63,471 bases of DNA from Vicinamibacteria bacterium (GCA_016934575.1 JAFGSN010000107.1:1-63471), one strand, 5' to 3'; counted from the first letter of the stretch, positions 3-18,690 are shown. Notes: a model not told the origin generated them from the sequence alone. Numbers and translations: made by a program.

Positions 3-1313
3 GCTCCGCCTCCGGCGCGGATTGCTCCCCCTCCACAGCCTCCGGCTCGACCCGCCTGGGAGCCTCGCCAAGCTCCGCCGACTCCGATCATGGAAGAGGA
101 GATAGCATTCGATGAGGAATCGCCCCTCCTGGATTCTCTCGGCCTTGGTTCTGCCGATGAGGCGTCCATTATGGAACAAGAGGAGGAGATACCGCTCGAA
201 GTCGAAGAAGCGACGCCACTTCCGCCCGCGTCAGGCGAGATTGCCGCGGAGTCCTTGTTGTCCGATCTCGGCTTCGGCGCTGAAAGCGAGGGGGAGCTGC
301 CCGAGCGTTTCCTCGATGAGCCTTCGGCGCCGCCCGAGCCGATTCTTCCGAAAGTCCAGGAGCCCCCGTCTGCGGCTGACACCGAAGGCGACTTTTTCGG
401 CGACCTAGGAGCCGCGCCTGCGCAGATCGACCAGGAGTTGGATCTCTTTGGTCTGGATCAGCAGCCCCAACAATTCACGGCGCCCCCCGCGCTCGCCAAC
501 GCGCCCTCCGATCTGTCACGGGCGCTTGGAGAGGTCGACCAGTTGGTCGCGCTGGGCTTCATCGATAACGCTTTGGAGACCATGCGCACGGTGGGCATGC
601 GATATCCCGGGCATCCCGCCGTTCTCGACAAGATTTCCCAGCTTGGCCTCGATCAGGAGGAAGCTGTTAGCGGCGTCAACGAGGCCTCCCACACCGCCCT
701 TCCGTCTGATCAATCAGGACTTGGGGAGGTTTTCGATTCTTTACCCGGCCTGGAAGCGCCTGTTTCGCCGCAGCCGGCCGAAGGAATCGATCTCGGAACG
801 GAGCTTGGCGATCTTTTTACGGCGCATGAAGCCGTAGAGGAACCCGCTCCCGCCTTGAGAACCGCCGACCTGGGAGACGTCAGCTTGGCGGAGATCTTCA
901 AGGAATTCAAGAAGGGCGTGGATCGCCAGCTCGGCCAGGAGGACTACGACACTCGATACAACCTCGGCATCGCATACAAAGAGATGGGACTGGTCGATGA
1001 AGCCATCGCTGAGTTCCAACTTGCCGTCAAAGACGAAAACCGACTGCTTGAGTGCAGCAGCATGCTCGGGCTGTGTTTTCTGGAAAAAGGCATACCCAAA
1101 CTTTCCGTCAAATGGTTCGAGAAGGGACTCTCCGCCCCTGGACGGCGTGAAGAGGAATACCAAGGACTCCGCTACGATCTGGCGACCGCCTACGAAGCCG
1201 CCGGAGAGACACAAAAGGCTTACAATCTCTACCTAGAGCTTTACTCTCAGGATGCAAGCTTTCGCGACGTGGCTGGCAAGGTGCAGCAGTTGCAGGCGCT
1301 GGCGGGCGGATGA
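3..1313 (+). CDS. TPR protein, 5'-truncated by the window edge; long acidic/Pro-rich linker and C-terminal TPR domain
   Basis: Frame is open from position 3 (APPPARIAPPPQ...), so the true start is probably upstream. C-terminal TPRs: YDTRYNLGIAYKEMGLVDEAIAEFQ, LRYDLATAYEAAGETQKA. Confidence 0.8.
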   Translation, partial: APPPARIAPPPQPPARPAWEPRQAPPTPIMEEEIAFDEESPLLDSLGLGSADEASIMEQEEEIPLEVEEATPLPPASGEIAAESLLSDLGFGAESEGELPERFLDEPSAPPEPILPKVQEPPSAADTEGDFFGDLGAAPAQIDQELDLFGLDQQPQQFTAPPALANAPSDLSRALGEVDQLVALGFIDNALETMRTVGMRYPGHPAVLDKISQLGLDQEEAVSGVNEASHTALPSDQSGLGEVFDSLPGLEAPVSPQPAEGIDLGTELGDLFTAHEAVEEPAPALRTADLGDVSLAEIFKEFKKGVDRQLGQEDYDTRYNLGIAYKEMGLVDEAIAEFQLAVKDENRLLECSSMLGLCFLEKGIPKLSVKWFEKGLSAPGRREEEYQGLRYDLATAYEAAGETQKAYNLYLELYSQDASFRDVAGKVQQLQALAGG

Positions 1314-1597
1314 GCGTGGCGATTGCGCCCGGGCTCTTCCGAGTGCGCTTACGATTGACGTTGTTGCTCTCGATCGTCAGCTCTGTGTTCGTCGGTTTTG
1401 GCCTTGTCTTGGTTCCATGGACGCAACTCTGGGAGTCGAATTGTCTTCTTCAATGGAATCCGGGCATGCGTGAGTTCATGCTGAGCGCCTACGTTCGTGG
1501 CGCAGTGAGTGGAGTCGGCCTCGTCAACGTCATTCTGGCGATCGAGGAGATCGGGCTGTACTGGAGGCATGTACATGGCGTCCGGAATGCTCAGTAA
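1310..1597 (+). CDS. Small membrane protein (two predicted TM helices)
   Basis: ATGA overlap with the upstream stop; hydrophobic segments LTLLLSIVSSVFVGFGLVLVPW and GAVSGVGLVNVILAI. Confidence 0.65.
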   Translation: MSVAIAPGLFRVRLRLTLLLSIVSSVFVGFGLVLVPWTQLWESNCLLQWNPGMREFMLSAYVRGAVSGVGLVNVILAIEEIGLYWRHVHGVRNAQ

Positions 1598-1730
1598 CGT
1601 CACGCCGCGGCCGACAACCGTGTTCGTCGGACCGTCGGAAACGTCGCCGGACGCGGGCGATTCACTCGATTGATTAGAGATTAGGGCGCCTGAAATGCCG
1701 TGTTGCCGGCGGCCGTTCCCGTGAGGGCGC

Positions 1731-2540
1731 ATGCGACAGGTCGCAAGCGAGTCCGAGATCGATCGGCTTTACTCTGAGATTCTGCTGGTCGGCGAGAGCG
1801 CGGCGGGCGTTCGGGAGTTTTTCGCGCGACACGAGATATCCGAAAGCGCGCTTCTATCGTTGTTGCGACGAATCGTGCCGCGGAAGTTTCTGGAACACGT
1901 GGCGACCACGCGGCCATGGTCCGAACGAGCGGTTGTCCTGGGCGTGGTGGCGATGAATCCGCGGATCCCGCGGTATCTAGCGTTGCATCTCGTTGCGTCG
2001 CTGACTTGGGTCGATCTCGTTCGTCTCGCCGCCACCCCCCGCGTGGACGCGGCGATGCGTAACCGCTGCGAGGAAGTTTTGCGCGAAAACCTTCCGGACA
2101 TGCGCCTAGGCGAACGAATTGCTCTCGCGAGACGAGCGACGCCGCGGATCCTCATGCTCTTGCTCCTCGACAGTGATCCTCGAGTCATTGACGCCGGACT
2201 GCTCAATCCACGGTTGAGGGAAGAGGACGTTCTTCATGCGATACGCAGGGACGAATCTTCCGGGACGCTGCTCGATCGCGTATCGGCGTGTTATTGTTGG
2301 CGCGACAACCATGCCGTCCGTCTGGCGCTGGTTCTCCACCTCCGGACTCCGTTGTCAGTGGCTTTGGCGCAGTTGAGCCATCTCGTCGACTCGGCCCTGG
2401 CTCGTCTGATCACGACGAAAACCCTTCCGCCTCTTATCCGGGCCGGCGCTGAACGAGTGCTGGAGGTTCGTAACGCTCAACGCCAAGGGCGATCCGATGA
2501 AATGGGGCCCCTTCAGATCGGACGTGATTCGGGGCATTGA
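1731..2540 (+). CDS. Hypothetical alpha-helical (HEAT/LRV-like) repeat protein
   Basis: Repeated motifs NPRIP, LLNPRL, HLRTPLSVAL; similar by eye to the C-terminal half of 3363..4454. Confidence 0.7.
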   Translation: MRQVASESEIDRLYSEILLVGESAAGVREFFARHEISESALLSLLRRIVPRKFLEHVATTRPWSERAVVLGVVAMNPRIPRYLALHLVASLTWVDLVRLAATPRVDAAMRNRCEEVLRENLPDMRLGERIALARRATPRILMLLLLDSDPRVIDAGLLNPRLREEDVLHAIRRDESSGTLLDRVSACYCWRDNHAVRLALVLHLRTPLSVALAQLSHLVDSALARLITTKTLPPLIRAGAERVLEVRNAQRQGRSDEMGPLQIGRDSGH

Positions 2541-2566
2541 CAGGGCCGCGGGCTATTCGATACTAT
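2537..2566 (+). promoter_or_regulatory. Putative sigma70 promoter for the rodZ-like gene
   Basis: TTGACA (2537-2542), 18-nt spacer, TACTAT; about 50 nt upstream of ATG 2615. Confidence 0.4.
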
Positions 2567-2614
2567 CTCCCGCGAAATCCAGCGTAGGCTGTGTGATAGA
2601 CTGCTGCTTCGACC

Positions 2615-3361
2615 ATGGCGTCTTTTGGTAGTCATCTTCGGACCGAGCGCGAGTTGCGGGGGATCCTTCTCACGGAGATCTCTCAGGCGACAAAAATAAG
2701 CCGCCGATTCCTCGAATATCTCGAGGAGGATCGCCTGGATCGTCTGCCCGGCGGTCTCTTCCCTCGTGCTTTTGTTCGTCAATATGCCAAATACATCGGG
2801 TTGGACGCCGATAAAGCTGTTTCCGAGTTCGTGTATGTTCACCACTCCGAGGCCGAACCTCCTGAGCCGTCCATTGATGTCGCCGATCCGAAGAGAAGCC
2901 GATCGTGGCTGGGAGTCGGAGCCGCTATCGGGCTGCTGGCCATGGTCTGGACTTGGTCTCGCTCGCGATCCGAAGGTCCGCCGGCCGCCGCGACTCCCGC
3001 GCCGGCAATGGTTGTTTCACCGACACCGCAGGCCGAACAGATCTTCAAAGCCGATCAAGCGGAGGAACAGGGGCTGGTGATGACGCTCAAGGCCAAGGAG
3101 AGTTGCTGGATCGAGGCCCGCGTGGACGGCGAGGTGATCATGAATCGAGTGCTCAATCAGGGAGAGACAACGACCCTGGAGGCGATCGGGGAAATACGTC
3201 TTTCGGTCGGCAACGCGGGCGGGCTGGCGTTCGATGTGAACGATCGCCCGGGTCTTCCCCTAGGGCGAAGCGGCGAGGTGAAACGCGACATTCGCATCAC
3301 GCGGGAGAATCTGCCGTCCTTGGTTCAGAGCAAGCCGTCCCCGGATTCTCTGAGTAGCTGA
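2615..3361 (+). CDS. rodZ: RodZ-like protein (HTH_25, TM helix, DUF4115)
   Basis: N-terminal FGSHLRTERELRGILLTEISQATKISRRFLEYLEE..LPGGLFPRAFVRQYAKYIGLD; single TM; C-terminal SCWIEARVDGE...VGNAGG...LGRSGEV. Confidence 0.85.
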   Translation: MASFGSHLRTERELRGILLTEISQATKISRRFLEYLEEDRLDRLPGGLFPRAFVRQYAKYIGLDADKAVSEFVYVHHSEAEPPEPSIDVADPKRSRSWLGVGAAIGLLAMVWTWSRSRSEGPPAAATPAPAMVVSPTPQAEQIFKADQAEEQGLVMTLKAKESCWIEARVDGEVIMNRVLNQGETTTLEAIGEIRLSVGNAGGLAFDVNDRPGLPLGRSGEVKRDIRITRENLPSLVQSKPSPDSLSS

Positions 3362-3362
3362 A

Positions 3363-4454
3363 ATGGCCGACGCCCGAATTCCCAATCCGCTCGTTGAACG
3401 TTTCTTTAAGGGTGGTATTCCGCTCGATCTCCGGATGATGGCCGCACAGGGCGCCCTGCCGTTGACGCCCGCCGACCTTGTCGAGTTGCTTCATCATTTA
3501 TTGCGGGATCCGGAAAGCGAGGTGCGAAGCACGGCATCAGCCACGATGATGGCGATGCCGGTCGAAGCGTTGTTGCCGATCCTCAAGGATCGCCTGACTC
3601 TTCAGGGCGTCCTGGATTGGGCGCTTTCATCTCGCCAGGAGGATCAGCTCCTCGAGGCCGTGCTTCAGAATCCCTCCACTTCGGACGTGGCGATCGAAGA
3701 GCGGGCGGCCCATTTGTCGATGGAGCTGGCCGAGTTGGTCGTGATCAATCAGGTTCGTCTATTGCGTCGAAACACGCTTCTCGATGCGATTGAATCGAAT
3801 TCTCGGCTGAATAATGACCAGCGCCGCCGATTACGGGAGTTGCGGGAGAACTTCAATATCGGCACGACTCCGGCGGTCGCGGTCGCTCCATCGCCGATCG
3901 TTGCGCCGGTCGTGCCTGAGGCGCCACCGCCGCTCGCTCCCGTCGAGTCGGAAGTCGACGAGCCGGCGCCGAGCACCGAGCAAGAGGCGTTTTTCCGATA
4001 CTTGACCGAGGAGGAGCGTCAAGAAGCCCAGAGGCTCACGACCGTTCAGAAGGTCTTCCGTCTCAACGTCGCCCAGAAAGTTATTTTGGCCTTGAAAGGC
4101 ACGCGCGAGGAGCGAACAGTGCTCGTGCGCGATCCCAATCGTATTGTCTCCACCGCGGTTCTGGGCAGTCCGCGGCTTACCGAGTCGGAGGTGGAGATCA
4201 TCGCGGGGATGCGCAACGTCTCGGACGAGGTTCTGCGCGTCATCGGCCAGCACAAGGGGTGGACCAAGCGCTATAATGTCGCGCTTCAGCTCGTCAAGAA
4301 TCCCCGCACGCCGCTCGCCATTTCGATCGGAATGGTCGCGCGTCTCAATCCGCGGGATATGAAGAGCGTGTCCGTCGATCGGAATGTCTCGGAAGTGATT
4401 CGCAATCACGCGCAGCGTTTCGTGCGCGAAAAGGCCACCGGAAAACGAGGCTAG
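3363..4454 (+). CDS. Hypothetical alpha-helical repeat protein
   Basis: 363-aa ORF starting 1 nt after the rodZ stop; motifs LQNPSTSD, LVRDPNRIVSTAVLGSPRLT, LVKNPRTPLAIS. Confidence 0.8.
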   Translation: MADARIPNPLVERFFKGGIPLDLRMMAAQGALPLTPADLVELLHHLLRDPESEVRSTASATMMAMPVEALLPILKDRLTLQGVLDWALSSRQEDQLLEAVLQNPSTSDVAIEERAAHLSMELAELVVINQVRLLRRNTLLDAIESNSRLNNDQRRRLRELRENFNIGTTPAVAVAPSPIVAPVVPEAPPPLAPVESEVDEPAPSTEQEAFFRYLTEEERQEAQRLTTVQKVFRLNVAQKVILALKGTREERTVLVRDPNRIVSTAVLGSPRLTESEVEIIAGMRNVSDEVLRVIGQHKGWTKRYNVALQLVKNPRTPLAISIGMVARLNPRDMKSVSVDRNVSEVIRNHAQRFVREKATGKRG

Positions 4455-4457
4455 GTT

Positions 4458-5120
4458 TTGCCGGACTATTATCAATTGCTCGGAGTGCGTCCGGATGCTT
4501 CGCCAGCGGAGATCCGCAGCGCTTACTTACGACTGGCCCGGGATCGACATCCTGACCGCCACACCGATCCCGCCGAGAAGGCGCACGCCGAGGAGAGCTT
4601 CAGGGAGATCACGACCGCTTTCAATACGCTGTCGAATGAACGGTCGCGAAGAGAATATGACGACGAACTCGCTCGACCCAAGGCGACGACTCCAGAAGAG
4701 CTGGCGCAGGAAGCCTATTTGCAGGGCATTGAAAGGCTGAAGGCGCAGGACCATCAAGAGGCGCTTGGTTTCTTTCGGGCCGCCGTACACCATTTGCCGG
4801 AACGCGCCGAGTATCAGGTCGCTCTTGGACGAGTTCTCGCGATGAATCCTTCGCTGGGACATGAGGCCGTGACAGTATTTGAAAAAGCGGCAACTCTCGA
4901 ACCGCAGAACGCCCAGATCTACGTGGAACTTGCCCGAATCCTGCACAACCAGGGCTTGCGCATTCGAGCGCGTAGAGCGGTCGAGGCCGCGCTCCGTCTT
5001 GCGCCCCATGATCCCGACGTCGCCCGAATACTCGCCGGGCTCGGCATGCGCCCGGATAAGGGGGGCGCCGCCGCACCACGAGGCTCCGGCCTTCTGGATC
5101 GACTGCGTGGCAAGTCGTAG
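4458..5120 (+). CDS. J-domain (DnaJ-like) protein with C-terminal TPRs
   Basis: DYYQLLGV...EIRSAYLRLARDRHPD (HPD motif)...AFNTLSNERSRREYD, followed by TPRs; TTG start. Confidence 0.9.
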   Translation: MPDYYQLLGVRPDASPAEIRSAYLRLARDRHPDRHTDPAEKAHAEESFREITTAFNTLSNERSRREYDDELARPKATTPEELAQEAYLQGIERLKAQDHQEALGFFRAAVHHLPERAEYQVALGRVLAMNPSLGHEAVTVFEKAATLEPQNAQIYVELARILHNQGLRIRARRAVEAALRLAPHDPDVARILAGLGMRPDKGGAAAPRGSGLLDRLRGKS

Positions 5121-5285
5121 CCTTGCCATACAACGGGAAGGAATTCCGCAGCCCCATGACGGCGCCACGCCTCGACTTGCCCCTCGACGCTTTGTGTTGT
5201 CTACTGGCATTGTCGTTGTTTCGTGTCGGAGTCGAGCCGTGACGTTGTCAATGGCGACACCCGAGAAGGGCGCGGTTTTCACGCC

Positions 5286-6050
5286 ATGAGATTTATCTAC
5301 GCTGCCGTTACAGACATCGGACGCAAGCGGAAGAGCAACGAGGACAATCTGTTTGCCAATTCAGACGATGGTCTTTTCATTGTCGCCGACGGCATGGGCG
5401 GACACGCGGCCGGTGAGGTGGCTTCGCGGGTCGCCGTCGAGGCGATCAATGAGTTCATTTGCATGACGAGTCGAGACAACGAGATCACCTGGCCGTTTGG
5501 GCTCGACGACACGATTTCCTACGACGGCAATCGTCTTAAAACCGCCATACGCTACGCCAATGAAAAGGTGCTGGATGCGATGCGGCGACAGGCCGAATAC
5601 GAGGGAATGGCCACTACGGTGGTCGCCGCCCTGATCGGCAATGGCAGGGTGAATCTGGCGCATGTTGGGGACAGCCGCATCTATTTGGCGCGCGACGCCG
5701 CGCTGCACCAGCTCACGTCGGATCATTCATGGGTCAATGAACAGATCCAAAACGGCATCATCTCGCCCGATCAGGCGCGGACGCATCCTCTACGCAACGT
5801 CGTGACGCGCGCGCTCGGGGGCAAGTCGGATATCGAAGTCGACGTCCAGGAGTTCGAAGCGCGGGAAGACGACGTGCTGCTTCTATGCTCCGACGGCCTG
5901 ACGACGATGCTTCCTGACGAAGAGATCGCCCGTCGCGTCGCGGAAGCCGCGTTGGACGTCGAGCGAGCCGCGAACGATCTGGTGGCAACCGCCAATGATC
6001 GCGGCGGTGAGGACAACATAACCGTGCTTCTGGTTCGTTTTCAGCCATGA
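5286..6050 (+). CDS. PP2C-family Ser/Thr protein phosphatase (Stp1/PrpC type)
   Basis: TDIGRKRKSNED, VADGMGGHAAGEVAS, HVGDSRIY, LLCSDGLT, GGEDNIT; start placed at ATG 5286. Confidence 0.95.
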   Translation: MRFIYAAVTDIGRKRKSNEDNLFANSDDGLFIVADGMGGHAAGEVASRVAVEAINEFICMTSRDNEITWPFGLDDTISYDGNRLKTAIRYANEKVLDAMRRQAEYEGMATTVVAALIGNGRVNLAHVGDSRIYLARDAALHQLTSDHSWVNEQIQNGIISPDQARTHPLRNVVTRALGGKSDIEVDVQEFEAREDDVLLLCSDGLTTMLPDEEIARRVAEAALDVERAANDLVATANDRGGEDNITVLLVRFQP

Positions 6051-6099
6051 ATGATTCCCGCCGACCGTCAACTTGACCGCCGCCACCCCATGGGCCCCC

Positions 6100-8064
6100 A
6101 TGTCTCCGGCTGATCAGACCGACGCGAATTCAGCCTTCCATATCGGTAAATATCGTGTTCTGGGACGCGTTGGACGCGGAGGCATGGGCGTCGTTTATCG
6201 CGCTTTTGACGAAACGCTCGAGCGCGAGGTGGCCCTCAAGGTGTTGGTTCTCGAGACCAATCTCGATCGAGAGATTCGCCGCCGGTTCGTGGTCGAGGCC
6301 AAGGCGGCCGCCAAGCTGCAGCATCCCAATATCGTCACCGTCTACGAGCTGGGAGAAGAGCGAGGGATTCCGTTCATCGCGATGGAATTCCTTTCCGGCA
6401 TGGACGTGGACATGCTTCTGCGCTCCGAGGAACCGCCGCTTCTCGAGGAATCGCTCGAGATCATGGCCCAGGTGTGCCAGGGCTTGGCTTATGCTCATTC
6501 CCGTCGCATCGTTCATCGCGATATCAAGCCCTCCAACGTTCGTGTCTTGGAAGACGGGACCGCCAAGATCCTTGATTTCGGCATTGCAAAGCTTGGCGAG
6601 CTCACGCTGACACAGAGCGGAATGGTGCTCGGCACCGTGCATTACATGAGCCCCGAGCAGGTTCGCGGACTTCCGCTTGACGGCCGTAGCGACGTCTTTT
6701 CCGCGGGCGTCATCCTCTATGAAATGTGCACGAAAAAGCGGCCCTTTACTGGACGCACGGCGACTGAAATATTCGACGGCATTCTGCACGCCGCCGCTCC
6801 ATCATTGCCTCAGGATCTTCTGAAGCGTGCGCCCCGTCTGCGGTCCGTGCTTGAACGGTCGCTGGCAAAGAACGCCGCTGATCGCTATCCCTCCGCATCC
6901 GTCTTGGCGCGCGACTTGACGTCGCTGCACGATGATGTTCTCGGCGCCCGCGGTTCGTATGAAACGATGGAGGCCGTCAAGCTCGTCGATCGCGCCGAGA
7001 AACTCGTCAAAGAAGGGCGCTGGGAAGATGCGATCGTCGACCTATCGTCCCAACTGACGCAACACACGGACTGTCTTGCGGTCCGCCGCGCGCTTCGCGC
7101 CGTGAAGCACGCGCAAACGCGGCGTCAAGACCACGCGGAGGAAGGATTTCCTGAGTTGCTCTCCGCCTTCGGGGCCGCGCTTCAGACCCAGAGGGCGACT
7201 GCAATCCTGACGAAGCCCGAGCCACGCATGAGGATCGGCGGCCGGAGCATGCTCCTGCTGGGCGCATTGCTGCTGATTTTCGCCATCACGGCCGCCGTGC
7301 TATTGCATTCGGACGCCTCGCGAAAACCAACGAGGGGCGCGGCGGTAAAACCGCCGGTCACGACGACGCAATCCGCGTCCGCGATCTCGCGGGACGGCGT
7401 TCCGGTTTCCGATGAGGCGCCAGCGTCTTTCGTGGCGCTGAGAATCGAATCGAATCCGCCGGGAGCGAACGTCTTTCTGAACGGCATCGCCGTGAAGGGA
7501 CTGACGCCGCTCTCCATCGAGGTCGAAAGGGATCAGGCGCACCGGATCGAACTGCGTTTGAGCGGCCATGTTCCTCACGAAACGACGATTGCCATGACGG
7601 AACCTATTACGGAGGAGCTTCGCTTCGATCTTCATTCAATCGGCCCTCTCACGGCCGTGGTCGTCACATCGTCTTATCCGCTCGACATTCATTGGAACGG
7701 CCGGGTCATGGCGCGCCGCGAAACGTCGCCGCGCATCGAAATCCCGCGCGGCCGACACGCTCTGAAAATCGAGGCGTCGGAGTACTTCTTACGTTGGGAT
7801 GTCGTGGTGGACGTCGCGGAAGCGCCGCTGAGCATCGCAGCGCCCGTATTGGGACGACTGAGCGCTCGCGCCAGCCCGGACAACTGCGCGATCTACATTG
7901 ACGGCGTCTTCGCGGATAATCCTCCCATGCATGGGCGGCCGGTCGCGTCGGGCACGCACGTCGTCGAGTTCCGCTGGCCCGACGGTTTCCGTACGCGCAA
8001 GACCGTCGACGTGACGGCGGACGGCGTCGCGTATGTTTTCGGTCGCAGAGAGGAGAATCCGTGA
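6100..8064 (+). CDS. Membrane Hanks-type Ser/Thr kinase with extracytoplasmic PEGA domains
   Basis: GRGGMG, VALK, HRDIKPSN, DFG, YMSPEQ, DGRSDVFS; TM MLLLGALLLIFAITAAVLL; PEGA IESNPPGANVFLNG. Start ATG 6100 (or TTG 6073). Confidence 0.93.
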   Translation: MSPADQTDANSAFHIGKYRVLGRVGRGGMGVVYRAFDETLEREVALKVLVLETNLDREIRRRFVVEAKAAAKLQHPNIVTVYELGEERGIPFIAMEFLSGMDVDMLLRSEEPPLLEESLEIMAQVCQGLAYAHSRRIVHRDIKPSNVRVLEDGTAKILDFGIAKLGELTLTQSGMVLGTVHYMSPEQVRGLPLDGRSDVFSAGVILYEMCTKKRPFTGRTATEIFDGILHAAAPSLPQDLLKRAPRLRSVLERSLAKNAADRYPSASVLARDLTSLHDDVLGARGSYETMEAVKLVDRAEKLVKEGRWEDAIVDLSSQLTQHTDCLAVRRALRAVKHAQTRRQDHAEEGFPELLSAFGAALQTQRATAILTKPEPRMRIGGRSMLLLGALLLIFAITAAVLLHSDASRKPTRGAAVKPPVTTTQSASAISRDGVPVSDEAPASFVALRIESNPPGANVFLNGIAVKGLTPLSIEVERDQAHRIELRLSGHVPHETTIAMTEPITEELRFDLHSIGPLTAVVVTSSYPLDIHWNGRVMARRETSPRIEIPRGRHALKIEASEYFLRWDVVVDVAEAPLSIAAPVLGRLSARASPDNCAIYIDGVFADNPPMHGRPVASGTHVVEFRWPDGFRTRKTVDVTADGVAYVFGRREENP

Positions 8065-9578
8065 AAGCGGTTTGGAAATCGAAGGGTTGCCTGAGGGGAA
8101 TGATCCGTGCCGCCGCCGCTGCCGCCGCTACTCTTGGTCTTGGGGCGAGCATGCTTCCGGCGCAGATTTTGCCCGACGAACAAGCCCGAAGACTGCTCGA
8201 GGACGGCCGATCCGCAATCCGACAGGGAAAGCTCAAGCAAGCTCTCGACAACCTGAACACCATCGTGACGGGTTTCGCGAACACGGATGTCGTTGACGAT
8301 GCACTGCTTGAAATCGGCCAGGCGCATTTTCGACTGGGAGATGACATTGAGAAGGCGCGCGCCGCTTTCGGCGAGGTGGCCCGCCGATATCCTCAGGGAA
8401 ACGCGGCCGCCGGAGCTTTCTACTACCTCGGATGGTTGACGCTGCGTAATGCCGCGACCCGCGCGCAGGTCGAGGAGGCCTTGGCGCAGTTCAGTCGTCT
8501 CTGCCGGCTCTATCCGAAAAGCGAGTGGGTTCCCAGAGCGCTTCATGCGAGCGGGCTCGCCCATCGTCGCGCTGGTCGTCATGCGGAGTGCGTTCAGTTC
8601 CAGCGCCGTGTTGTCTTCGAGTATCCTCGCGACGACGTCGCTCCGGCCGCGCAGTACGAAGTGGGCCGTTGTCTGGCCCTCGGGGGAAAACCGGCCCAGG
8701 CCTTGGAGGAGTACCAGCGCCTGCGCAATCAGCACCCAGCCGGCGAATGGGGCGTCCGCGCCCTCGATCGCACGACGGCTCTCTGGCGTCTTTATGGCGG
8801 CGAAACGCCGTCCTTTACGCTCGATCCGGGCTTCGCTTTCACCGCGGGGAACGTCACGAAGAACGTGCGCGACATGCTGATGACCGAGGATGGCGTTCTC
8901 TGGATCGCTTCGAGCAAGGCTGGAAGCGTCGCGGCGTTCGCGGACGGTCGTATGAGTCAGTCGCTGTCTTTGATGAAACCACAGGCTCTCGCATTCTCCG
9001 CGCAAGGCGATCTGATCGCGGCGGGCGAATCGGCGGTTCGTGTCGGCTCCAGGGACATCCACACTTTCGCGGTGCCCGACGATCGCGAGGAAATGAAGCC
9101 GCTCGATCGCATTTCAGCGGCGCTCTTGCTGATGAACGGCGAGTGGCTCGTCTCCGATTTGCGGCACAAGGCGATTTTCCGTTTCGATCCGGAGCACAAG
9201 CTGCTCGATCGTTTCGGCGGCAGGAGCGAACGCGTCGTCTCCCGTCTTCTGTTGGACGACGAAGGCGCCGTTGTCGTGCTTGACCAGCGGGAACGCTGCG
9301 TCGAGTTCTTCGATCCGTCGGGTCAGCGTTTGCGTCGGATTGATCTTAAAGGCGCAGGGTTTGATCTGCGACGCGTCGTGGACATGGCCATCGATCCTCA
9401 GCGTAATCTCAATATTCTTGATGAGCGGAGCGGCGTCTGGATTCTTACCCCCGAGGGTCGGCTCTTGGCGAGCATCGGCGGCGACTCGCTGGGCAAGCCC
9501 CAGGCTCTGGCGCTGTCGCCCGACGGCGCGATCTTGGTTTACGATGGGAAACTTGACAGAGTCGTGCGCTTTCAGTGA
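8061..9578 (+). CDS. Exported TPR (BamD/CpoB-like) plus NHL/beta-propeller protein
   Basis: GTGA overlap; signal-like AAAAAATLGLGASMLPAQ; TPRs (DDALLEIGQAHF, AAQYEVGRC); propeller repeats KPQALAFSAQGD, KPQALALSPDGAILVYD. Confidence 0.8.
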   Translation: MKAVWKSKGCLRGMIRAAAAAAATLGLGASMLPAQILPDEQARRLLEDGRSAIRQGKLKQALDNLNTIVTGFANTDVVDDALLEIGQAHFRLGDDIEKARAAFGEVARRYPQGNAAAGAFYYLGWLTLRNAATRAQVEEALAQFSRLCRLYPKSEWVPRALHASGLAHRRAGRHAECVQFQRRVVFEYPRDDVAPAAQYEVGRCLALGGKPAQALEEYQRLRNQHPAGEWGVRALDRTTALWRLYGGETPSFTLDPGFAFTAGNVTKNVRDMLMTEDGVLWIASSKAGSVAAFADGRMSQSLSLMKPQALAFSAQGDLIAAGESAVRVGSRDIHTFAVPDDREEMKPLDRISAALLLMNGEWLVSDLRHKAIFRFDPEHKLLDRFGGRSERVVSRLLLDDEGAVVVLDQRERCVEFFDPSGQRLRRIDLKGAGFDLRRVVDMAIDPQRNLNILDERSGVWILTPEGRLLASIGGDSLGKPQALALSPDGAILVYDGKLDRVVRFQ

Positions 9579-9579
9579 T

Positions 9580-11838
9580 ATGGAGGTCGCAGTGCTCGAT
9601 CACAGAAAACACGAGGAATCCAGGCTGCGGCGAGTTCATCGGCGTCGTCTTTGCATCGTGGCCTGGGCGTTCACGCTGATCAGCTCTATGCCGGAAGCGA
9701 GGGATTGTGCCGCTCAGCCGTCGTCGGCCTCGGATTCGGTCGTCCCCGAGTCCATACAGGCGGAGATGCAATCGGCTCAAGAGCTCCTGACGCACGCGAC
9801 CGTAGAATTCGAGGGGCCGAGTCAGAGCCGTTCCATAGTCCTTTTTGATCGTATTGTCGAAAAACTCGAGGGACTGAAACGACAAGAGCAGCTTCCTCTC
9901 CATGGGGAGGAGATTTTGGCCCAAGTCTACGATCTCCAGGGCCGCGCATACTTCAATATCGGTCTCCAAGAGAAAACGGCGCAGGTGTTTCGCCGGCTCA
10001 TCCAGATGAAACCGCAATACACGCTTCACAAGGATCAGGTCTCGCCCAAGATCGTCGCCTTCTTCAACTCCGTGAAAAAGGAGCTGGTGGGATATCTTGC
10101 GGTTTCGTCCAAACCGCCAGGAGCCAGAGTCGCTCTAGACGGAACTTTTCTGAGCATCACCGATTTTTTCCCAATAGAAGTCCTCGCCGGCGACTACTCG
10201 GTCGAGATTTCACGCGAGGGTTATCAAACCGAATCACGTAACGTGAGCATCGCTCCACGCATCACGGAGACCGTCGAGGTTGCTCTGACGCGTACCGCCG
10301 CCAGCGGTTTCTTCGTGACGCAACCGACCGGAGTCGAGATCTGGATTGACGGCGCTTTGCGGGTCGTCACGGGCGGATCATTGCATCCAGCGGCGCACGA
10401 GGAGTTCAAGGCGCTGGGTTTCGACCCGGCGCAGACTTCGGCGCGAACCGAGGCGCCCAATATCCTCCTTGGTCCGCATACGATCGAGTTTCGCAAGCGG
10501 TGTTTTGAGTCGATCCAGACAAGCTTCGACGTTGAGGAAGCCAAGGATTACGATATCGAGCCGGTCCGACTTCAGGAATCGCTGGCATCGCTTCGTCTGG
10601 TCTCGGATCCTCCGGGCGCGAAAATCATCCTTGACGGCGAGCCCAAGGGGGCGACGCCTGCGTATCTCGATGGGCTTTGCTCGGGATCTCACAATCTGGA
10701 GGTGAGGCATGCGGCCGGCAAGTTCGTTCAGGAGATCATTCTGGCGCGCAACGAGGAGCTGAGTCTTGACTGCCCGATACGACCCAGCCTGGCCTTTCTC
10801 GGGGTGCTAGCCGAGAGCTTCGCCGCCGAGAGATACCTGACCGAGGCCGATACGCGTGTCGGGATAAAACTCGCCGAGGTGCGCAGCCTGAACATCGTTC
10901 GTCCGCCAATCGAGCGCGTCAATCAGGCTCTCCGATCCGAGGGGCTGACGCTCGCCGATCTTTTGCCGAAAGCCGGCGGCGATCCTGAGCGGGTACGCAA
11001 GGCGACCGAGATGCTATCGGCCGCGCTCGACGTTCAGGGATTTCTTATCGCGGCGCTTTCGGAGCAGCAGATTTTGCGTAACGTTACCTTGAGCCTGCTT
11101 GCGGCGGGAAGCAGCCTGGCGGACACACGCGAAGCTTCCCTTGTCGACACGGACTCGAAGGCCGGTATCATTGAGGATCTCGATCATCTGGCCAGCCTCT
11201 CGCGCACATGGTCCGGGCTGATCACCATCGATGTAAAACACCAGCGAGGTCTTCCAGTGCTGCGAGTCGGGCAAGGCGGACCCGCCGAGCGGGCGGGCAT
11301 CCGCGCCGGTGAAATCCTCATCAGCGCCGACGGGAAAACGTTGGCAAGCACACACGAGCTTCTGGAGCTGGTCGCGGCGAAGAAACCCGACGCCGCGCTG
11401 CGTCTTATTGTGGAGCAGTCGGGGACGAGCCGCGTGGTCGAGCTGACGCTCGGGATGACTCCAGTCGAGGTGGCGCTGAACGATCAGGGTATTCTCTACA
11501 ACCGCCTCATGCTGGATCTGAGGCAGGAGCTTGACGGGCGGCCCGGCACGGAATCCGCCGCGTTCGCGCGTCTCAACCTGGGTCTGTGCGCGTTGCACTT
11601 CGGCGATCTCGCGGCGGCGCACGAACATTTCCTCGCGGCCGCCCGTGATCTTCCGCGGCGCCCAGGGTTGGGGCGCGGAACGGCTTTGTATCATCTCGGC
11701 GTCGTGTTGGAGCGACTTGGCTACTCGAAGGAGGCGCTGGAATCCTATCGCGCCGCCGCTGCCGTTGAAGGAGCGACCGTTATCGACAATGACGGCCCGC
11801 TTGTTAAAGACCTCGTGTCAGAAGCGCCAGGAGCGTGA
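9580..11838 (+). CDS. Exported multidomain PEGA + PDZ + TPR protein
   Basis: PEGA: VSSKPPGARVALDG, VTQPTGVEIWIDG, VSDPPGAKIILDG. PDZ: VLRVGQGGPAERAGIRAGEILISADG. Terminal TPRs. Start ATG 9580 or GTG 9592 (GGAGG RBS); the 9271 start overlaps the upstream gene. Confidence 0.82.
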   Translation: MEVAVLDHRKHEESRLRRVHRRRLCIVAWAFTLISSMPEARDCAAQPSSASDSVVPESIQAEMQSAQELLTHATVEFEGPSQSRSIVLFDRIVEKLEGLKRQEQLPLHGEEILAQVYDLQGRAYFNIGLQEKTAQVFRRLIQMKPQYTLHKDQVSPKIVAFFNSVKKELVGYLAVSSKPPGARVALDGTFLSITDFFPIEVLAGDYSVEISREGYQTESRNVSIAPRITETVEVALTRTAASGFFVTQPTGVEIWIDGALRVVTGGSLHPAAHEEFKALGFDPAQTSARTEAPNILLGPHTIEFRKRCFESIQTSFDVEEAKDYDIEPVRLQESLASLRLVSDPPGAKIILDGEPKGATPAYLDGLCSGSHNLEVRHAAGKFVQEIILARNEELSLDCPIRPSLAFLGVLAESFAAERYLTEADTRVGIKLAEVRSLNIVRPPIERVNQALRSEGLTLADLLPKAGGDPERVRKATEMLSAALDVQGFLIAALSEQQILRNVTLSLLAAGSSLADTREASLVDTDSKAGIIEDLDHLASLSRTWSGLITIDVKHQRGLPVLRVGQGGPAERAGIRAGEILISADGKTLASTHELLELVAAKKPDAALRLIVEQSGTSRVVELTLGMTPVEVALNDQGILYNRLMLDLRQELDGRPGTESAAFARLNLGLCALHFGDLAAAHEHFLAAARDLPRRPGLGRGTALYHLGVVLERLGYSKEALESYRAAAAVEGATVIDNDGPLVKDLVSEAPGA

Positions 11839-11841
11839 TCC

Positions 11842-12186
11842 ATGGCTGTGCTCGTTCATATGACCAAGGACGGCGGCCGGCGGCATTTCATCCTGGGCGA
11901 TCGTCCCGCGCGCATCGGCCGCGCCGATGACGCTGATATTCATCTGGAAGAGCCGCTCGTATCACGCACGCATGCGCGCATCGAAAAGAACGGCGACGTC
12001 TGGGTGCTTCAGGATCTCAACTCGCGGAACTCCACGCATGTCAACGGCGAGCGGATTCACGAGCATCGACTGATCCATGGAGACGAGATCCTGTTCGCCA
12101 GGGCTCGCTGCCTCTTCCTCGCCGTCGATGACAACGAGACGTCGGGGTCCTTGCGCGACGATGGGCTCATCGTCGAGGAACCATAA
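11842..12186 (+). CDS. FHA domain protein
   Basis: IGR...VSRTHARI...DLNSRNSTHVNG...LIHGDEI, the canonical FHA G-R, S-x-x-H and N motifs. Confidence 0.92.
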   Translation: MAVLVHMTKDGGRRHFILGDRPARIGRADDADIHLEEPLVSRTHARIEKNGDVWVLQDLNSRNSTHVNGERIHEHRLIHGDEILFARARCLFLAVDDNETSGSLRDDGLIVEEP

Positions 12187-12229
12187 GCTGAAGCTGGCAA
12201 TCGAAACCGTTTGCATCGGAGCTCGCACC

Positions 12230-12258
12230 TTGACATCCTTCCTCGACCTTGGTAGCCT
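12230..12258 (+). promoter_or_regulatory. Putative sigma70 promoter for the DUF4388 gene
   Basis: TTGACA (12230-12235), 17 nt, TAGCCT (12253-12258) with an extended -10 TG. Confidence 0.55.
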
Positions 12259-12362
12259 GGCCTCGCTAATTCGAAGTATTCGCGGGATTTAGCGGCATGG
12301 GCCGCCAGTGATCGCTCTCGCGAGTCTTCGGATTACGATATAGGCTCCGGAGCGCCGGAAAC

Positions 12363-13205
12363 ATGGCCTTTCAAGGGTCGCTGGCGGAATTACATCTGCC
12401 CGACATTATTCAACTCATCAGTGTCAGCGGAAAGACGGGCGTCTTTCACATGACTGACGGCGTTAACCGCGGGCAGATTTACCTGCACGACGGGCAGATC
12501 GTTCATGCTCAGCTTGAAGATCTGAAAGGCGAGGAGGCGGTTTACGCGCTGGCGATCTGGCGTCAAGGAGAGTTTCGTTTCGATCCGGGCGTGGACACGC
12601 CCGAGCGAACGATTTCGAAGAACAACACCAACCTGCTGATGGAAGCCGCCCGCCGCCTCGACGAATGGCGCGTGCTTTCGAAAAGGATTCCTTCCACCGA
12701 CACGATTCCCGAGTTCGTGGTTCCGGGAAGTCGGGAAGGACAGATCAATCTCAACACGAGCGAGTGGCTGATTCTCTCGAAAATCGACGGCCACCGGACG
12801 ATCAAGGCCATCGCCGCGGGCTGCGCCCTGTCCGATTTCGACGTATCCAAGATCCTCTACGGCTTGATCACCACGGGACTCATCCGCTTGAGGGAGCCTT
12901 CTTCGCGGCCGCCTGCTCAAACGCTCACGCCGGCGCCTCAGCCGGCTCCGGCATCCGCGCGCTCCACGGCGGTCGATTTGCTCGCCCGTCTCAATCGCGT
13001 GCGCGAGGTGTGCAACTCCGTGTTGGGCAGCGTGGGCGAGAGCGTCATTACCAAGCACTATCTCAAGGCGCGCTCGGATCTGGAGAATGGCGCCGGCGGC
13101 GAAGTTATTGACGAGGCGGTTCAGCAGATCGCGCGCGCCGCGTCGATACTAAAGGGGCCGCAGATGACCGAAGCCCTTTTGACGCAAATCGCCAAACTAC
13201 GCTGA
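12363..13205 (+). CDS. DUF4388 (PATAN-like) domain protein
   Basis: MAFQGSLAELHLPDIIQLISVSGKTGVF...GQIYLHDGQIVHA...W..GEFRF...LLMEAARRLDEW, followed by a winged-helix-like segment. Confidence 0.9.
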   Translation: MAFQGSLAELHLPDIIQLISVSGKTGVFHMTDGVNRGQIYLHDGQIVHAQLEDLKGEEAVYALAIWRQGEFRFDPGVDTPERTISKNNTNLLMEAARRLDEWRVLSKRIPSTDTIPEFVVPGSREGQINLNTSEWLILSKIDGHRTIKAIAAGCALSDFDVSKILYGLITTGLIRLREPSSRPPAQTLTPAPQPAPASARSTAVDLLARLNRVREVCNSVLGSVGESVITKHYLKARSDLENGAGGEVIDEAVQQIARAASILKGPQMTEALLTQIAKLR

Positions 13206-13226: not shown

Positions 13227-14420
13227 TCAGACAACCATGGATGCGACGGCCTCGTTGTAACGCGCGATCACGACGGGCCATGAGTAGTTTTGGGTGACAT
13301 AACGCCGTCCGCGCTCTCCAAGCGCGTGGCGCAGGCGTTTTTCACTGACGAGCAGGCGTAGCTCTTCTACGAACTCGTCAGCGTCCTTGTAGTACAGGCC
13401 GGAGTTGGATCTGCGGCAATGGTCCACGAGGACCGGCGAGCGAGCGCTCGCCAGCACGGGCGTTCCCAGGCAGAGGCTCTCGAGGAGCACGATTGACAGG
13501 CTTTCATATGGGCTAGGGCAGATGACGGCGCACGCTCCCGCCATGGCCGCGCGTTTCTCCGTCTCGTCGAGAAATCCGAGATACCGGACGCCGGGGATAC
13601 GCGGCAGCTTCATGGCGAGCTTGCCGATGAGAATGAGCTCGGCTCCGCCGTTGACGCCGCGCCTGTACTTGATGTAATGATCGAGCATTTCGCGGCAACC
13701 CTTGCCGGCGTCGATGCGTCCCGCATAGAGCGCATATGCGCCATGCAGGTCGTGTCGGATACGGAACGCTTCGATATCGAGAGGCGGAGGCTCTTCGACG
13801 CCGATACCCGCCACCCAGCAGGGTCGAGCGCCCAGGGAGAAACGCGCCCGCACAAGCTCCCGTTCGGCATGTGAGCAGAAGACGAAGGCGCGCGGGGCGG
13901 CGAAGACATGCGTGAAAACACGCAGACGAAGCGCCGGCTCGTCGTGCGCCGTCGGCACGAGGATGGCTCGTTCCGGAGCCGCACGTAGGCCCCAATATGT
14001 GGGGTAGTAAAGATAGGTAAAAAACAGCACGGCAGCGTATTCATCCCGTGTTTCCGCAAGATACTTGACGAGGTCCGGTACGATCGGTCCCTGCCGGCGA
14101 AGAAACTCCAACTCCGCCTCGTCGTCGTGAGGCCGGCCGTAGAGGGACTCGGCGAAGGCGTTGAAAGACGCGAGATCGCGTTCCTCACGGCTTGTGAATC
14201 GAAGGATCCTCACTCCGTTGATTCGCGATTCGCCGGCGGGCAACTCGTTGCGCCATGTGACGTAATCCCGCGCGCAGGACGTGAGGACGGTAACGCGACG
14301 GTTGTTCGTCAGTCGCTCGGCGACGGCTCGAGCCAGGCTCTCCGAACCGCCGGCAACGTCTTCACCATAACGTTGAACGACGATCGCGATCTCTCGTTGA
14401 TCCCCGGCCATTCGACCCAT
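13227..14420 (-). CDS. Glycosyltransferase family 4
   Basis: VVQRYG..AGGSE, YAGRIDAGKG, PSPYESLSIVLLES (EX7E). Start may be ATG 14411 by RBS spacing. Confidence 0.92.
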   Translation of the reverse strand: MGRMAGDQREIAIVVQRYGEDVAGGSESLARAVAERLTNNRRVTVLTSCARDYVTWRNELPAGESRINGVRILRFTSREERDLASFNAFAESLYGRPHDDEAELEFLRRQGPIVPDLVKYLAETRDEYAAVLFFTYLYYPTYWGLRAAPERAILVPTAHDEPALRLRVFTHVFAAPRAFVFCSHAERELVRARFSLGARPCWVAGIGVEEPPPLDIEAFRIRHDLHGAYALYAGRIDAGKGCREMLDHYIKYRRGVNGGAELILIGKLAMKLPRIPGVRYLGFLDETEKRAAMAGACAVICPSPYESLSIVLLESLCLGTPVLASARSPVLVDHCRRSNSGLYYKDADEFVEELRLLVSEKRLRHALGERGRRYVTQNYSWPVVIARYNEAVASMVV

Positions 14421-14487
14421 GCTCCTATTTACAGGATCTCGCTAATGCGGCAACGTACTAATAAGCGCTGCCGCATGAACAAGAATT

Positions 14488-14647
14488 TAACGCAAAGACT
14501 CCAAGACGCATAGTCGCAAAGATGGCAGGAGCTTGCTCAACGGACTTCATAGACCATTCACCGCGCGTATATGCTCTTGAATAACCGGACCGACCAAGGC
14601 TCGATGTGCGTCAGTGTCCATGTCCACGACGCCGCGCCTCTGCGTTA
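14488..14647. repeat. Degenerate ~160-bp element with imperfect inverted ends built from 8-bp tandem units (REP/MITE-like remnant)
   Basis: Left end TAA-CGCAAAGA-CTCCAAGA-CGCATAGT-CGCAAAGA; right end reads TAA-CGCAGAGG-CGCGGC on the minus strand. Confidence 0.4.
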
Positions 14648-14771
14648 GTTCTAAAGGTCATCCGCGAGTCTCGATCGTGAGCGTTCGGTTCGAACGCGTC
14701 GCTTGGGAGCGCCTTCCATGCGACCTCCGATGAGTGATCCTATGCGAAGCGCTTGAGGCGTCATCGTCTGA

Positions 14772-15833
14772 TCACAGGGATTCGATATGGCGGCGCAGAA
14801 GGGACGCTACGTTTTCCGGCGCAAACGCCCGGACGCGTCGTCGCTGTCCCGCGAGCACCGATTCGCGCAGGGCAGCGTTCGTCACCAGCAAATAGGCCGT
14901 CTCGGCCACTTCGGCGACTTCTTTACGAGTGAAGGCCAACCCCGCGCCGCCCAGTGTCTCTCCCACGGCGGCCGCTTTGTAGGCGAGAACCGGAACATCG
15001 AGCAGCATGGCCTCAAGAAACGGCACGCCAAAACCTTCATGGGCGCTCATCGAGAGAAACACGTCCGCGCCGGTGTAATACGCGAGAAGATCGTCATGCT
15101 CCACATGGCCGGTGAAAACGATTTCCCATGGCGTGAAGCCGAGTTCGTAAAAGAAGGACTGAAGGGCGTCGAAATAGCGTCTGAATCGAGGGAGCTTGCC
15201 GACAAGCAACAGGCGGACGTTCGGCGCGATGTATCTCTTCCAGTACGCGGCCACTCGAATGAGATCCGCGTGGCATTTATTGGGCGAAACGCGTCCGACA
15301 AACAGGATATTGACGAGGCCGTCGTCGAGCGTTCTGCGCAGGATGGGATTGGGCGGCTTTCGGTAGCGCGCGAAGTCGAGTTGGATCGGCAACACCGCGG
15401 TGCGTCCAAAGCCGGCCTGGACAAGGTCTCTCCGATTGAACTCACTGACCGCGAGGGCCAGATCGACGTCATCCTTGAGGCTCGCCAGATCTCGCCGGCC
15501 CTGGATGCAGATGCGCGCCATTTCCTCGTCGAATCCTAGAAAGGACTCGGGCGGAGTGATGTTGTGGTATAGCAAAACGCGGCGACCGCCATGCCGTTTG
15601 AGCGCCGGCGTCAAAGGCGATGGCAGCGCGTAATGCAGGATGACGATGTCGTCAGTTCCGCTATCCCGCCATTCGGCGAAGCGGCGTCCATCGCCTTCGA
15701 GGCATTGATCGATCTCGAGCGCGTAGACGTCGGCATCGAGGCCCCAGCGCCGGATCGTGTCGCGCATCAGGAGCGCCGAGTCGCCGACAGCGTCACCCTT
15801 ATGGAGCGCCGGAATCCATTGATCGATTCTCAT
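14772..15833 (-). CDS. Glycosyltransferase family 4
   Basis: GDAVG, YHNITP, LFVGRVSPNK, SAHEGFGVPFLEAM. Confidence 0.92.
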   Translation of the reverse strand: MRIDQWIPALHKGDAVGDSALLMRDTIRRWGLDADVYALEIDQCLEGDGRRFAEWRDSGTDDIVILHYALPSPLTPALKRHGGRRVLLYHNITPPESFLGFDEEMARICIQGRRDLASLKDDVDLALAVSEFNRRDLVQAGFGRTAVLPIQLDFARYRKPPNPILRRTLDDGLVNILFVGRVSPNKCHADLIRVAAYWKRYIAPNVRLLLVGKLPRFRRYFDALQSFFYELGFTPWEIVFTGHVEHDDLLAYYTGADVFLSMSAHEGFGVPFLEAMLLDVPVLAYKAAAVGETLGGAGLAFTRKEVAEVAETAYLLVTNAALRESVLAGQRRRVRAFAPENVASLLRRHIESL

Positions 15834-18120: not shown

Positions 18121-18674
18121 CCCCGAGGCTCCTCCCGCGGCCGCGGAGGAGCGTCCGCGGGTTCGTCGCGCAGAACCATTGTCTCGAGTGTTTTCTCACG
18201 GCGGATCTGGAATTCGAGCCGTCCTTGCAGCTCGAGCACGCGGTTCTTGAGGTTCTGGACCTCGAGGTTCAGCTTGGTGACCTCCTGAACGAGGTTGTGG
18301 AAGATCTGGATGTAAAACGCGTTGAGATCCGACTGCCGCGAGAGCGCGGCGATCATCGGGTTGGGGTTCCAGAAGAGCTTCTGTACGGGCCGCAGCAGGC
18401 CGCGCGTCGACTCGAGCAGTCGGCCGACGACTCCGCGGCTGCTCTCGTAGATCGTGCGCGGGTCAAAGCGGAAGTTCCAGCGCGAGGAGCGGAAGTCGTC
18501 GATCAGATCGCTGTTGAACTCGTGCGCGTCGAGAACGGCGTCGAGACGATGCTCGGCGATCTCGCGGATCTCCTCGTCGGTGTAAAGACCCTGCCTCTTC
18601 TCCTCGATGCGTTTTCGAATCAAGCGCATGATCTCTTCGACGTCGACGTCTGTGGATTGGATCTCGAAGCTCAT
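18117..18674 (-). CDS. Hypothetical coiled-coil protein in the glycosyltransferase operon
   Basis: ATG 18674 after an AAGGAAGGA RBS; DVDVEEIMRLIRKRIEEK; heptads LVQEVTKLNLEVQNLKNRVLELQGRLE. Confidence 0.8.
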   Translation of the reverse strand: MSFEIQSTDVDVEEIMRLIRKRIEEKRQGLYTDEEIREIAEHRLDAVLDAHEFNSDLIDDFRSSRWNFRFDPRTIYESSRGVVGRLLESTRGLLRPVQKLFWNPNPMIAALSRQSDLNAFYIQIFHNLVQEVTKLNLEVQNLKNRVLELQGRLEFQIRREKTLETMVLRDEPADAPPRPREEPRG

Positions 18675-18690
18675 GTGTCCTTCCTTGCCC

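Follow-up and report, generated by a model that had tools for sequence, protein, structure and literature searches.

The window, a stretch of 63,471 nucleotides (nt) from Vicinamibacteria bacterium (GCA_016934575.1 JAFGSN010000107.1:1-63471), begins where contig C87 begins in a draft assembly (G000; 3.98 Mb in 247 contigs, 98% complete), whose proteins have close relatives labelled Acidobacteriota, class Vicinamibacteria. Twelve plus-strand open reading frames (ORFs), all of them real and here named g1 to g12, fill positions 3 to 13205; contigs, genomes, and loci are designated C, G, and L. A sequence-only reading had proposed that these genes form one undescribed envelope or polarity phospho-signalling system. 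The run is indeed co-oriented and tightly spaced: from g1 to g12 the junctions measure -4, 133, 74, 1, 3, 165, 22, -4, 1, 3, and 176 nt, so that 6 of 11 are 4 nt or less. The domain assignments (RodZ, J-TPR, PP2C, PEGA kinase, two predicted exported repeat proteins, FHA, and DUF4388) were likewise confirmed. Comparison with related genomes nevertheless points to a different unit of organization; we consider it probable (roughly 0.6), from sequence comparison, that two modules with separate inheritance and one unrelated gene, g12, have come to adjoin here in a lineage-specific way.

Module A comprises an SgmX-like TPR gene, the paralogues g3 and g5, rodZ, and genes for J-TPR, PP2C, and FHA proteins, and is likely tied to a pole and pilus switch. 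g1 (3..1313) encodes the C-terminal 436 residues of the SgmX-like protein, is cut by the contig start, and neighbours the module core; g2 (1310..1597) follows it and encodes 95 residues with two transmembrane segments by hydropathy and no known family; g3 (1731..2540) encodes a helical-repeat protein with no Pfam family over cut-off. The nature and truncation of g1, the membrane segments of g2, and the paralogy of g3 and g5 go beyond what had been noticed before. g4 (2615..3361) encodes RodZ, with HTH_25, a transmembrane segment, and RodZ_C. The core gene, g5 (3363..4454), specifies two alpha-helical repeat domains and a flexible proline-rich, acidic linker, and has no named family. g6 (4458..5120) combines a DnaJ-type J-domain, its HPD motif intact, with TPRs; g7 (5286..6050) encodes an Stp1/PP2C Ser/Thr phosphatase; g11 (11842..12186) encodes a stand-alone FHA protein of 114 residues. 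Module B is the trio that lies between g7 and g11: g8 (6073..8064), an RD-type Hanks kinase with one transmembrane segment (residues 393 to 411) and a PEGA ectodomain; g9 (8061..9578), a predicted exported protein with CpoB/BamD-like TPRs and an NHL beta-propeller; and g10 (9580..11838), a predicted exported protein with TPRs, PEGA repeats, an alpha/beta domain, an HtrA/DegS-type PDZ domain unaccompanied by a protease domain, and further TPRs. Outside this block lies g12 (12363..13205), which encodes a DUF4388/PATAN protein.

Within the taxonomic order, 21 loci were compared (this one and 20 relatives, 19 of the latter with full DNA). The g4-g11 gene order is identical in 17 (this genome and 16 relatives), truncated by its contig in 1, and different in 3. 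Upstream of rodZ lies a promoter-like site of sigma-70 type, TTGACA-N18-TACTAT (2537..2566, plus strand), which is found at 9/12 matching positions or better in 19 of 20 genomes (10/12 or better in 14) and has no counterpart in any of 75 control regions upstream of g3, g5, g7, and g8; given this conservation, the predicted transcript is g4-g11. Inside the order, therefore, the run from rodZ to FHA holds together much as first proposed, while beyond it the genes are not conserved as one block.

Modules A and B are joined in 16 of the 19 relatives with full DNA. The remaining three (G003, G010, and G011) lack exactly g8-g9-g10; the PP2C gene lies 20 to 45 nt from the FHA gene there, and FHA thus remains with PP2C where the trio is absent. 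Genome-wide, searches of these three for the g8 ectodomain, g9, and g10 returned matches that were weak and incomplete, with none at full length, whereas positive controls matched at 1e-67 or better; G010 is a single contig, 94% complete, and the other two are drafts. By comparison, 38 of 41 genomes carry a complete or almost complete g10. In a phylogeny that covers 25 loci and uses four module A proteins, and whose deeper nodes are weak, the trio-less G003 is the sister of the trio-bearing G023 (ultrafast bootstrap 97), which implies at least two losses of the trio, perhaps three.

Farther afield, we compared 39 g5 loci and 40 g10 loci, picked from the top and the spread of the hits. At the g5 loci, rodZ lies directly upstream in 35, g3 is found ahead of rodZ in 12, PP2C lies downstream in 19, and J-TPR directly follows g5 in 7, with partial TPR matches in 6 more; a downstream kinase and g10 each occur once. 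At the g10 loci, one of which had just 1.6 kb of upstream sequence, g9 is adjacent in 38, a kinase domain lies within 4.5 kb upstream in 27, and a matching PEGA ectodomain is found in 27; PP2C precedes the trio in 7, FHA directly follows in 1, and rodZ and g5 are present in none. The g5 and g10 neighbourhoods are therefore distinct, which defines two modules, joined in this order and, in inverted arrangement, in the family of G081. A survey of 301 Acidobacteriota genomes (tallies include the unpublished G063) agrees: g5 matches in 215 and g10 in 113, with 121 of the 215 g5-positive genomes having no g10 match and 19 of the 113 g10-positive genomes no g5 match. The phi coefficients of g10 are 0.14 with MglA, 0.17 with PilM, and 0.20 with g5, so that it does not track them. 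A genome scan that sought the synteny more widely yielded 2 loci, and a plasmid search had no match. The kinase and its two exported partners thus stand as a conserved unit, but a single twelve-gene, single-pathway system is not supported: nearly all other lineages show no linkage between the trio and the rodZ block, and the trio is lost alone while PP2C and FHA remain.

The SgmX likeness of g1 was found with NF052243 (E value of 1.3e-34, profile positions 767 to 1015), and SgmX is the best NCBIfam model at both ends of the protein. A full-length relative of 1,068 residues matches at 1.9e-79 and scores 268 bits, below the family cut-off of 1,800; homologues in most relatives have about 1,030 to 1,070 residues. 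The N-terminal half of g1 ends contig C55, after ffh-rpsP-rimM-trmD-rplS-rnhB, and as g1 is cut by the contig edge, the C55-C87 join is taken from the relatives. g1 and g2 have one and the same distribution, 14 of 21 loci, and g2 also follows g1 in 6 class-mates. Upstream of ffh, two relatives (L034:10401-15990) carry genes for FHA-GAF-cyclase, Cache-HAMP-HD, and TPR proteins, a 117-residue Roadblock gene, and ftsY, the last four of which (Cache-HAMP-HD to ftsY) have apparent counterparts on C115 of this genome (L056). The Roadblock gene thus puts a second MglB/MglC-like gene about 9 kb before the SgmX-like gene.

Among the other module A proteins, g3 and g5 are paralogous (BLASTP E value of 8e-07). 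The AlphaFold2 (AF2) model of g5 has a predicted local distance difference test score (pLDDT) of 91.3 and a predicted template modelling score of 0.54. A Foldseek search gave no match at an E value of 0.001 or lower, the best VIA Z score was 7.5, and no clear relative in the Protein Data Bank came to light; the leucine-rich repeat variant (LRV) fold 1lrv (Z score of 7.0, root mean square deviation [rmsd] of 5.0 over 108 residues) is level with unrelated helical repeats. The family is large (1,624 clusters at 1e-30 or better), is unnamed, and is represented in Myxococcota; Thr273 and Thr316 are conserved, as Ser or Thr, in 92% and 86% of 64 sequences. Two relatives of 650 to 670 residues (P0121 and P0158) have a duplicated N-terminal domain, which marks this domain as a modular unit. 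g4 is the sole full-length RodZ-like gene of the assembly, which also has MreB, and its cytoplasmic linker contains no conserved Ser or Thr. The HPD motif of g6 is intact in 16 of 16 orthologues; g6 resembles the C-terminal part of three ORFs elsewhere in this genome (C199:5272-7035, C80:5656-7239, and C85:23901-25415) that match both DUF4388 and the J-TPR profile and represent DUF4388-J-TPR fusions. The phosphatase g7 scores 264.5 bits against NF033484 (Stp1; cut-off of 230), and 17 of 17 orthologues retain its motifs. The FHA protein keeps its binding motifs; a phosphorylated tail of the GarA/OdhI kind was ruled out, as no phosphorylatable tail is conserved in 21 sequences. At L114 (8121-10040) and 9 other g5 loci, PP2C is followed by an unnamed protein of 480 to 710 residues with no Pfam match, often before argS.

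The trio, as far as its sequences tell, is likely an envelope-sensing device made of a membrane RD kinase with a PEGA ectodomain and two predicted exported partners. The RD kinase domain of g8 is intact, its activation loop contains threonine, and the protein has one transmembrane segment; against NF033483 it scores 303.7 bits (cut-off of 450), with the kinase domain alone matched, and its ectodomain profile found no solved relative. Retained catalytic or binding motifs in g8, g7, and g11 bear out the earlier view of a writer, an eraser, and a reader. A hydrophobic leader is present in 27 of 29 g9 and 65 of 66 g10 orthologues, compared with 0 of 58 cytoplasmic controls; that either is a lipoprotein was ruled out, since a lipobox-like motif occurs in 0 of 29 and 1 of 66. 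The g9 profile matches the sensor domain of PknD (1rwi, an NHL propeller; E value of 5e-30). The AF2 model of g10 (pLDDT of 95.7) consists of TPRs, a run of beta-sandwich PEGA repeats, an alpha/beta domain, a PDZ domain, and TPRs; its PDZ superposes on HtrA/DegS PDZs (Z score of 15.4, rmsd of 1.6 over 87 residues), and the whole-model structure search scarcely probes the alpha/beta and PEGA parts. A pair of cysteines in g10 covaries strictly (both in 69 sequences, neither in 9, a single one in 0), consistent with a periplasmic disulfide. The g10 clusters in the Atlas are unnamed and mostly from Acidobacteriota. Common PEGA repeats, predicted export, and loss in concert suggest that the three proteins form a receptor complex.

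The surroundings of the trio vary. Several lineages have the g9-g10 pair with no neighbouring kinase; in one family (L203, L204, and L207) a gene for a 900-residue HEAT-repeat protein takes the place of the kinase upstream of g9-g10, and a 130-residue pilin-like ORF comes after. In G255 (L192:12274-16561) the trio is preceded by a T2SSE-family ATPase gene and two FHA genes. Two distant genomes (L190:5416-6120 and L194:12167-12913) have a gene for another DUF4388 protein after g10, so PATAN-type neighbours of the trio occur now and then.

We examined how module A is distributed with respect to MglA, polarity, and pili. This genome has an mglB-mglA-like pair, more MglA-like genes, 13 T2SSE-family ATPase matches, and pilOPQ, so that the genomic context of SgmX (MglA, MglB, and type IVa pilus genes) is present. 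pilM was not found in the draft assembly, probably because of a gap beside the 3.5-kb pilOPQ contig. MglA-like GTPases number 4 matches here (on C131, C74, and C90), two of them N-terminal domains of longer ORFs, and 3 to 6 in many Acidobacteriota. Across the 301 genomes, g5 and MglA occur together in 196 and are both absent from 64; 19 have g5 only and 22 MglA only, 18 of the latter carrying just a divergent MglA match. The 19 are class-mates lacking MglA (three of them and two g5-negative genomes, searched at 1e-4, gave no match); their g5 has an internal deletion in the N-domain in 5 of 5 aligned, and the six fetched loci with a shortened g5 have no g3, J-TPR, or PP2C gene. The phi coefficient is 0.66 for g5 and MglA versus 0.59 for g5 and PilM, or 0.84 versus 0.51 when, by a post hoc choice, the 19 count as g5-negative. 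The C-terminal unit of g1 is matched in 205 of 218 MglA-positive genomes and, among the MglA-negative genomes from other classes, in none of 57; in MglA-negative class-mates it is weak (11 of 26, best 6e-23), and 186 of 202 more distant MglA-positive genomes (median 1e-35) beat that value. In two families (G213 and G303), rodZ-g5-J-TPR-PP2C runs directly into pilM and pilO, and four more genomes of the former have the same g5-pilM spacing by coordinates. The proposed tie to cell polarity likely holds for module A, through SgmX and MglA; the kinase trio does not track MglA.

Passages of three papers on the Myxococcus xanthus SgmX protein (PMC7668184, PMC7519303, and PMC9811614) describe binding of MglA-GTP by its last three TPRs and a requirement for SgmX in pilus activation. 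By analogy, the C-terminal TPRs of g1 may bind MglA-GTP. The g5 protein, with g3, could serve as a cytoplasmic scaffold that couples RodZ and MreB to the polar machinery, g6 would recruit DnaK, and PP2C would reset, and FHA read, phospho-Thr on the scaffold. In module B, g9 and g10 would be exported by Sec and assemble on the PEGA ectodomain of g8; binding of an envelope ligand by the g9 propeller or the DegS-type PDZ of g10 might then cluster the kinase and lead to autophosphorylation of its activation loop. In this order the rodZ promoter likely drives both modules as one transcript, and the kinase may therefore act on module A here, as an optional input. Tentatively, and with much less assurance than we attach to the two-module reading itself, g5 and g3 can be cast as undescribed MglA-pathway scaffolds by which, in most Acidobacteriota, MglA/SgmX would be joined to RodZ-MreB and to type IVa pili. 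Into this scaffold, in the present order, a three-protein PEGA kinase receptor whose sensor domains reside on two separate periplasmic proteins would plug as an envelope input.

Several observations weigh against the two-module reading or its polarity link. g1-g3 sit upstream of the rodZ promoter and are located elsewhere in most other classes. The modules also meet outside this order: the trio stands inverted beside module A in G081, and in two more members of that family a single contig carries both g5 and g10, some 1 to 2 kb apart. PP2C precedes the trio in 7 of the 40 distant loci, which, like the g5 loci, are a non-random sample; in a PP2C tree of 36 sequences (fast search, midpoint root), these seven group with the second PP2C of this genome and not with g7 (SH-like approximate likelihood ratio of 90), and the tree leaves the ancestral state of the A-B linkage undecided. 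As to MglA, the name is one that we presume from a sequence motif and from an MglB-like gene next door, and an NCBIfam scan returned no MglA hit. The shortened g5 is probably one event, the co-occurrence profiles come from related genomes and are not independent trials, and the match of g5 with MglA may stem from an entire motility suite having been lost together a few times. pilM adjoins just 2 of the 39 fetched g5 loci.

Among the alternatives, we see one trans-envelope phospho-switch, now shorn of DUF4388, as unlikely but deserving of serious consideration: g9 and g10 would activate g8, which would adjust the MreB elongasome or polarity by phosphorylating RodZ or g5, and g7 would act as eraser and g11 as reader. 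The perfect gene order and single conserved promoter across the order speak for it, as do the meeting of the modules in the family of G081, the conserved threonines of g5, and the precedent of PrkC, which phosphorylates RodZ in Bacillus subtilis according to the abstract of 10.1101/2020.08.28.272336. It is harder to reconcile with the loss of the trio alone in three genomes and with the many genomes that hold g5 or g10 singly; the RodZ linker and the FHA protein offer no conserved phosphorylatable residues or tail, and the 20 kinase-domain and 13 FHA matches of this genome could serve g7 and g11. Such a kinase-to-shape switch is possible in this order and unsupported phylum-wide.

Less probable again is that module A is a cell-shape accessory block of RodZ-MreB whose match with MglA is a by-product of multi-gene losses in a few lineages. 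rodZ-g5 is the tightest link of all (35 of 39), g4 is the sole full RodZ in a genome that has MreB, and 19 genomes retain a short g5 in the absence of MglA; yet none of 42 PilM-positive, MglA-negative genomes has g5 bar those class-mates, and within one family (f38) g5 and MglA are jointly present (6 genomes) or jointly missing (G071, G087, and G098). That functionally unrelated genes merely hitch-hike downstream of the ffh-rplS-rnhB operon is very improbable. The block does follow this housekeeping operon in this class, and g12 shows that chance neighbours occur, but rodZ-g5-PP2C and g8-g9-g10 stay adjacent in other classes, where everything around them differs, and the trio disappears in one piece, which largely refutes hitch-hiking within the modules.

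Membership of g12 in the block, part of the original proposal, was rejected: in 0 of 20 relative loci does it occupy this place. Its orthologue is present in 37 of 41 genomes and at 8 of 8 examined loci lies beside a PDZ-histidine kinase gene and a glycosyltransferase family 4 (GT4) cluster, usually with a sigma-54-type regulator gene and a TonB-receptor-like gene. g12 has its own promoter-like site (9/12) and is one of 19 DUF4388 matches in the genome. Here too it is followed, at 13227-19596, by four GT4-like glycosyltransferase genes, a 216-residue ORF, and a UbiA-like ORF on the minus strand; persistence of this companion cluster places a rearrangement breakpoint between g11 and g12. Farther along, the window contains a second Hanks kinase gene (31141-32685, 514 residues) and, by eye from translations, a sugar-utilisation region (39332-59673) with three phosphorylase genes like glycoside hydrolase family 94 (GH94), two GH130-like genes, and genes for a ROK kinase, transporters, and a LacI regulator.

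The connection of MglA to the MreB cytoskeleton and pili has been worked out mainly in Myxococcus, and Acidobacteriota are an abundant, mostly uncultured soil phylum whose surface motility is little studied. As a large unnamed family beside rodZ that tracks MglA, g5 is a testable candidate for the missing link, and the trio is a candidate route by which a diderm devoid of PASTA domains could feed periplasmic signals to a Hanks kinase. What the analysis adds is the MglA link and the separation of PP2C and FHA from the trio; it also removes a false member, DUF4388, and cautions against reading this gene run as one pathway.

To judge from sequence, the locus holds two undescribed modules of known kinds. 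A literature search, which covered neither subscription papers nor supplements, found no description of g5 or the trio; titles or abstract openings on RodZ and MglA gave none of this locus, and a term search of PMC4719450 and PMC6060248 gave no useful passages. The closest known counterparts of g1 are two TPR proteins, SgmX (MXAN_5766) from M. xanthus and Bd2492 from Bdellovibrio, which act as MglA-GTP effectors and activate type IVa pili; the earlier reading had allowed that the cluster might be a fragment of a described system, and in this one gene it is partly so. Like SgmX, the g1 homologue has about 1,060 residues with N-terminal TPRs, a linker, and a C-terminal TPR unit (the 1,068-residue relative and both halves here match NF052243), but it falls far under the family cut-off. 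Where passages of PMC3983030 place tamAB-like genes downstream of sgmX and Bd2492, g1 is followed by g2-g3-rodZ-g5 and by no tamAB-like genes. By its DUF4388 domain, equated with PATAN in 10.1101/2021.06.11.447907, g12 resembles the PATAN regulators of cyanobacterial type IV pilus motors; unlike these, g12 has no receiver domain, and it is not a conserved part of the block.

The kinase, phosphatase, and FHA genes recall PknB/PstP/FhaAB of Actinobacteria and PrkC/PrpC (Stk1/Stp1) of Firmicutes, in that a membrane RD Hanks kinase directly follows an Stp1-type PP2C, an arrangement found here but at just 7 of the 40 trio loci elsewhere, and in that an FHA protein is nearby and a cell-shape gene lies in the same predicted transcript. 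They differ in the ectodomain, which is PEGA and not PASTA (a domain scan found no PASTA, as had been noted), in the two dedicated exported partners and the diderm host, and in that g8 can be dispensed with and, in most lineages, shows no linkage to rodZ. In the H1 type VI secretion system of Pseudomonas, PpkA-PppA-Fha1 and TagQRST likewise combine a PP2C and an FHA protein with a membrane kinase that has accessory partners in the periplasm. Here the predicted periplasmic partners are TPR/NHL and PEGA/PDZ proteins, and the FHA protein is stand-alone and not TagH (40.4 bits against TIGR03354, cut-off of 120); a link to type VI secretion, of which the first reading had also seen no sign, was rejected on the missing TssC/VipB (PF05943), the sole marker searched in the 98% complete draft. 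The putative sensor domains have counterparts in PknD of Mycobacterium tuberculosis, to which the g9 propeller is related, and in DegS/HtrA sensors, whose PDZs the g10 PDZ matches. In contrast to both, propeller and PDZ are carried here on separate exported proteins, off the kinase and with no protease domain.

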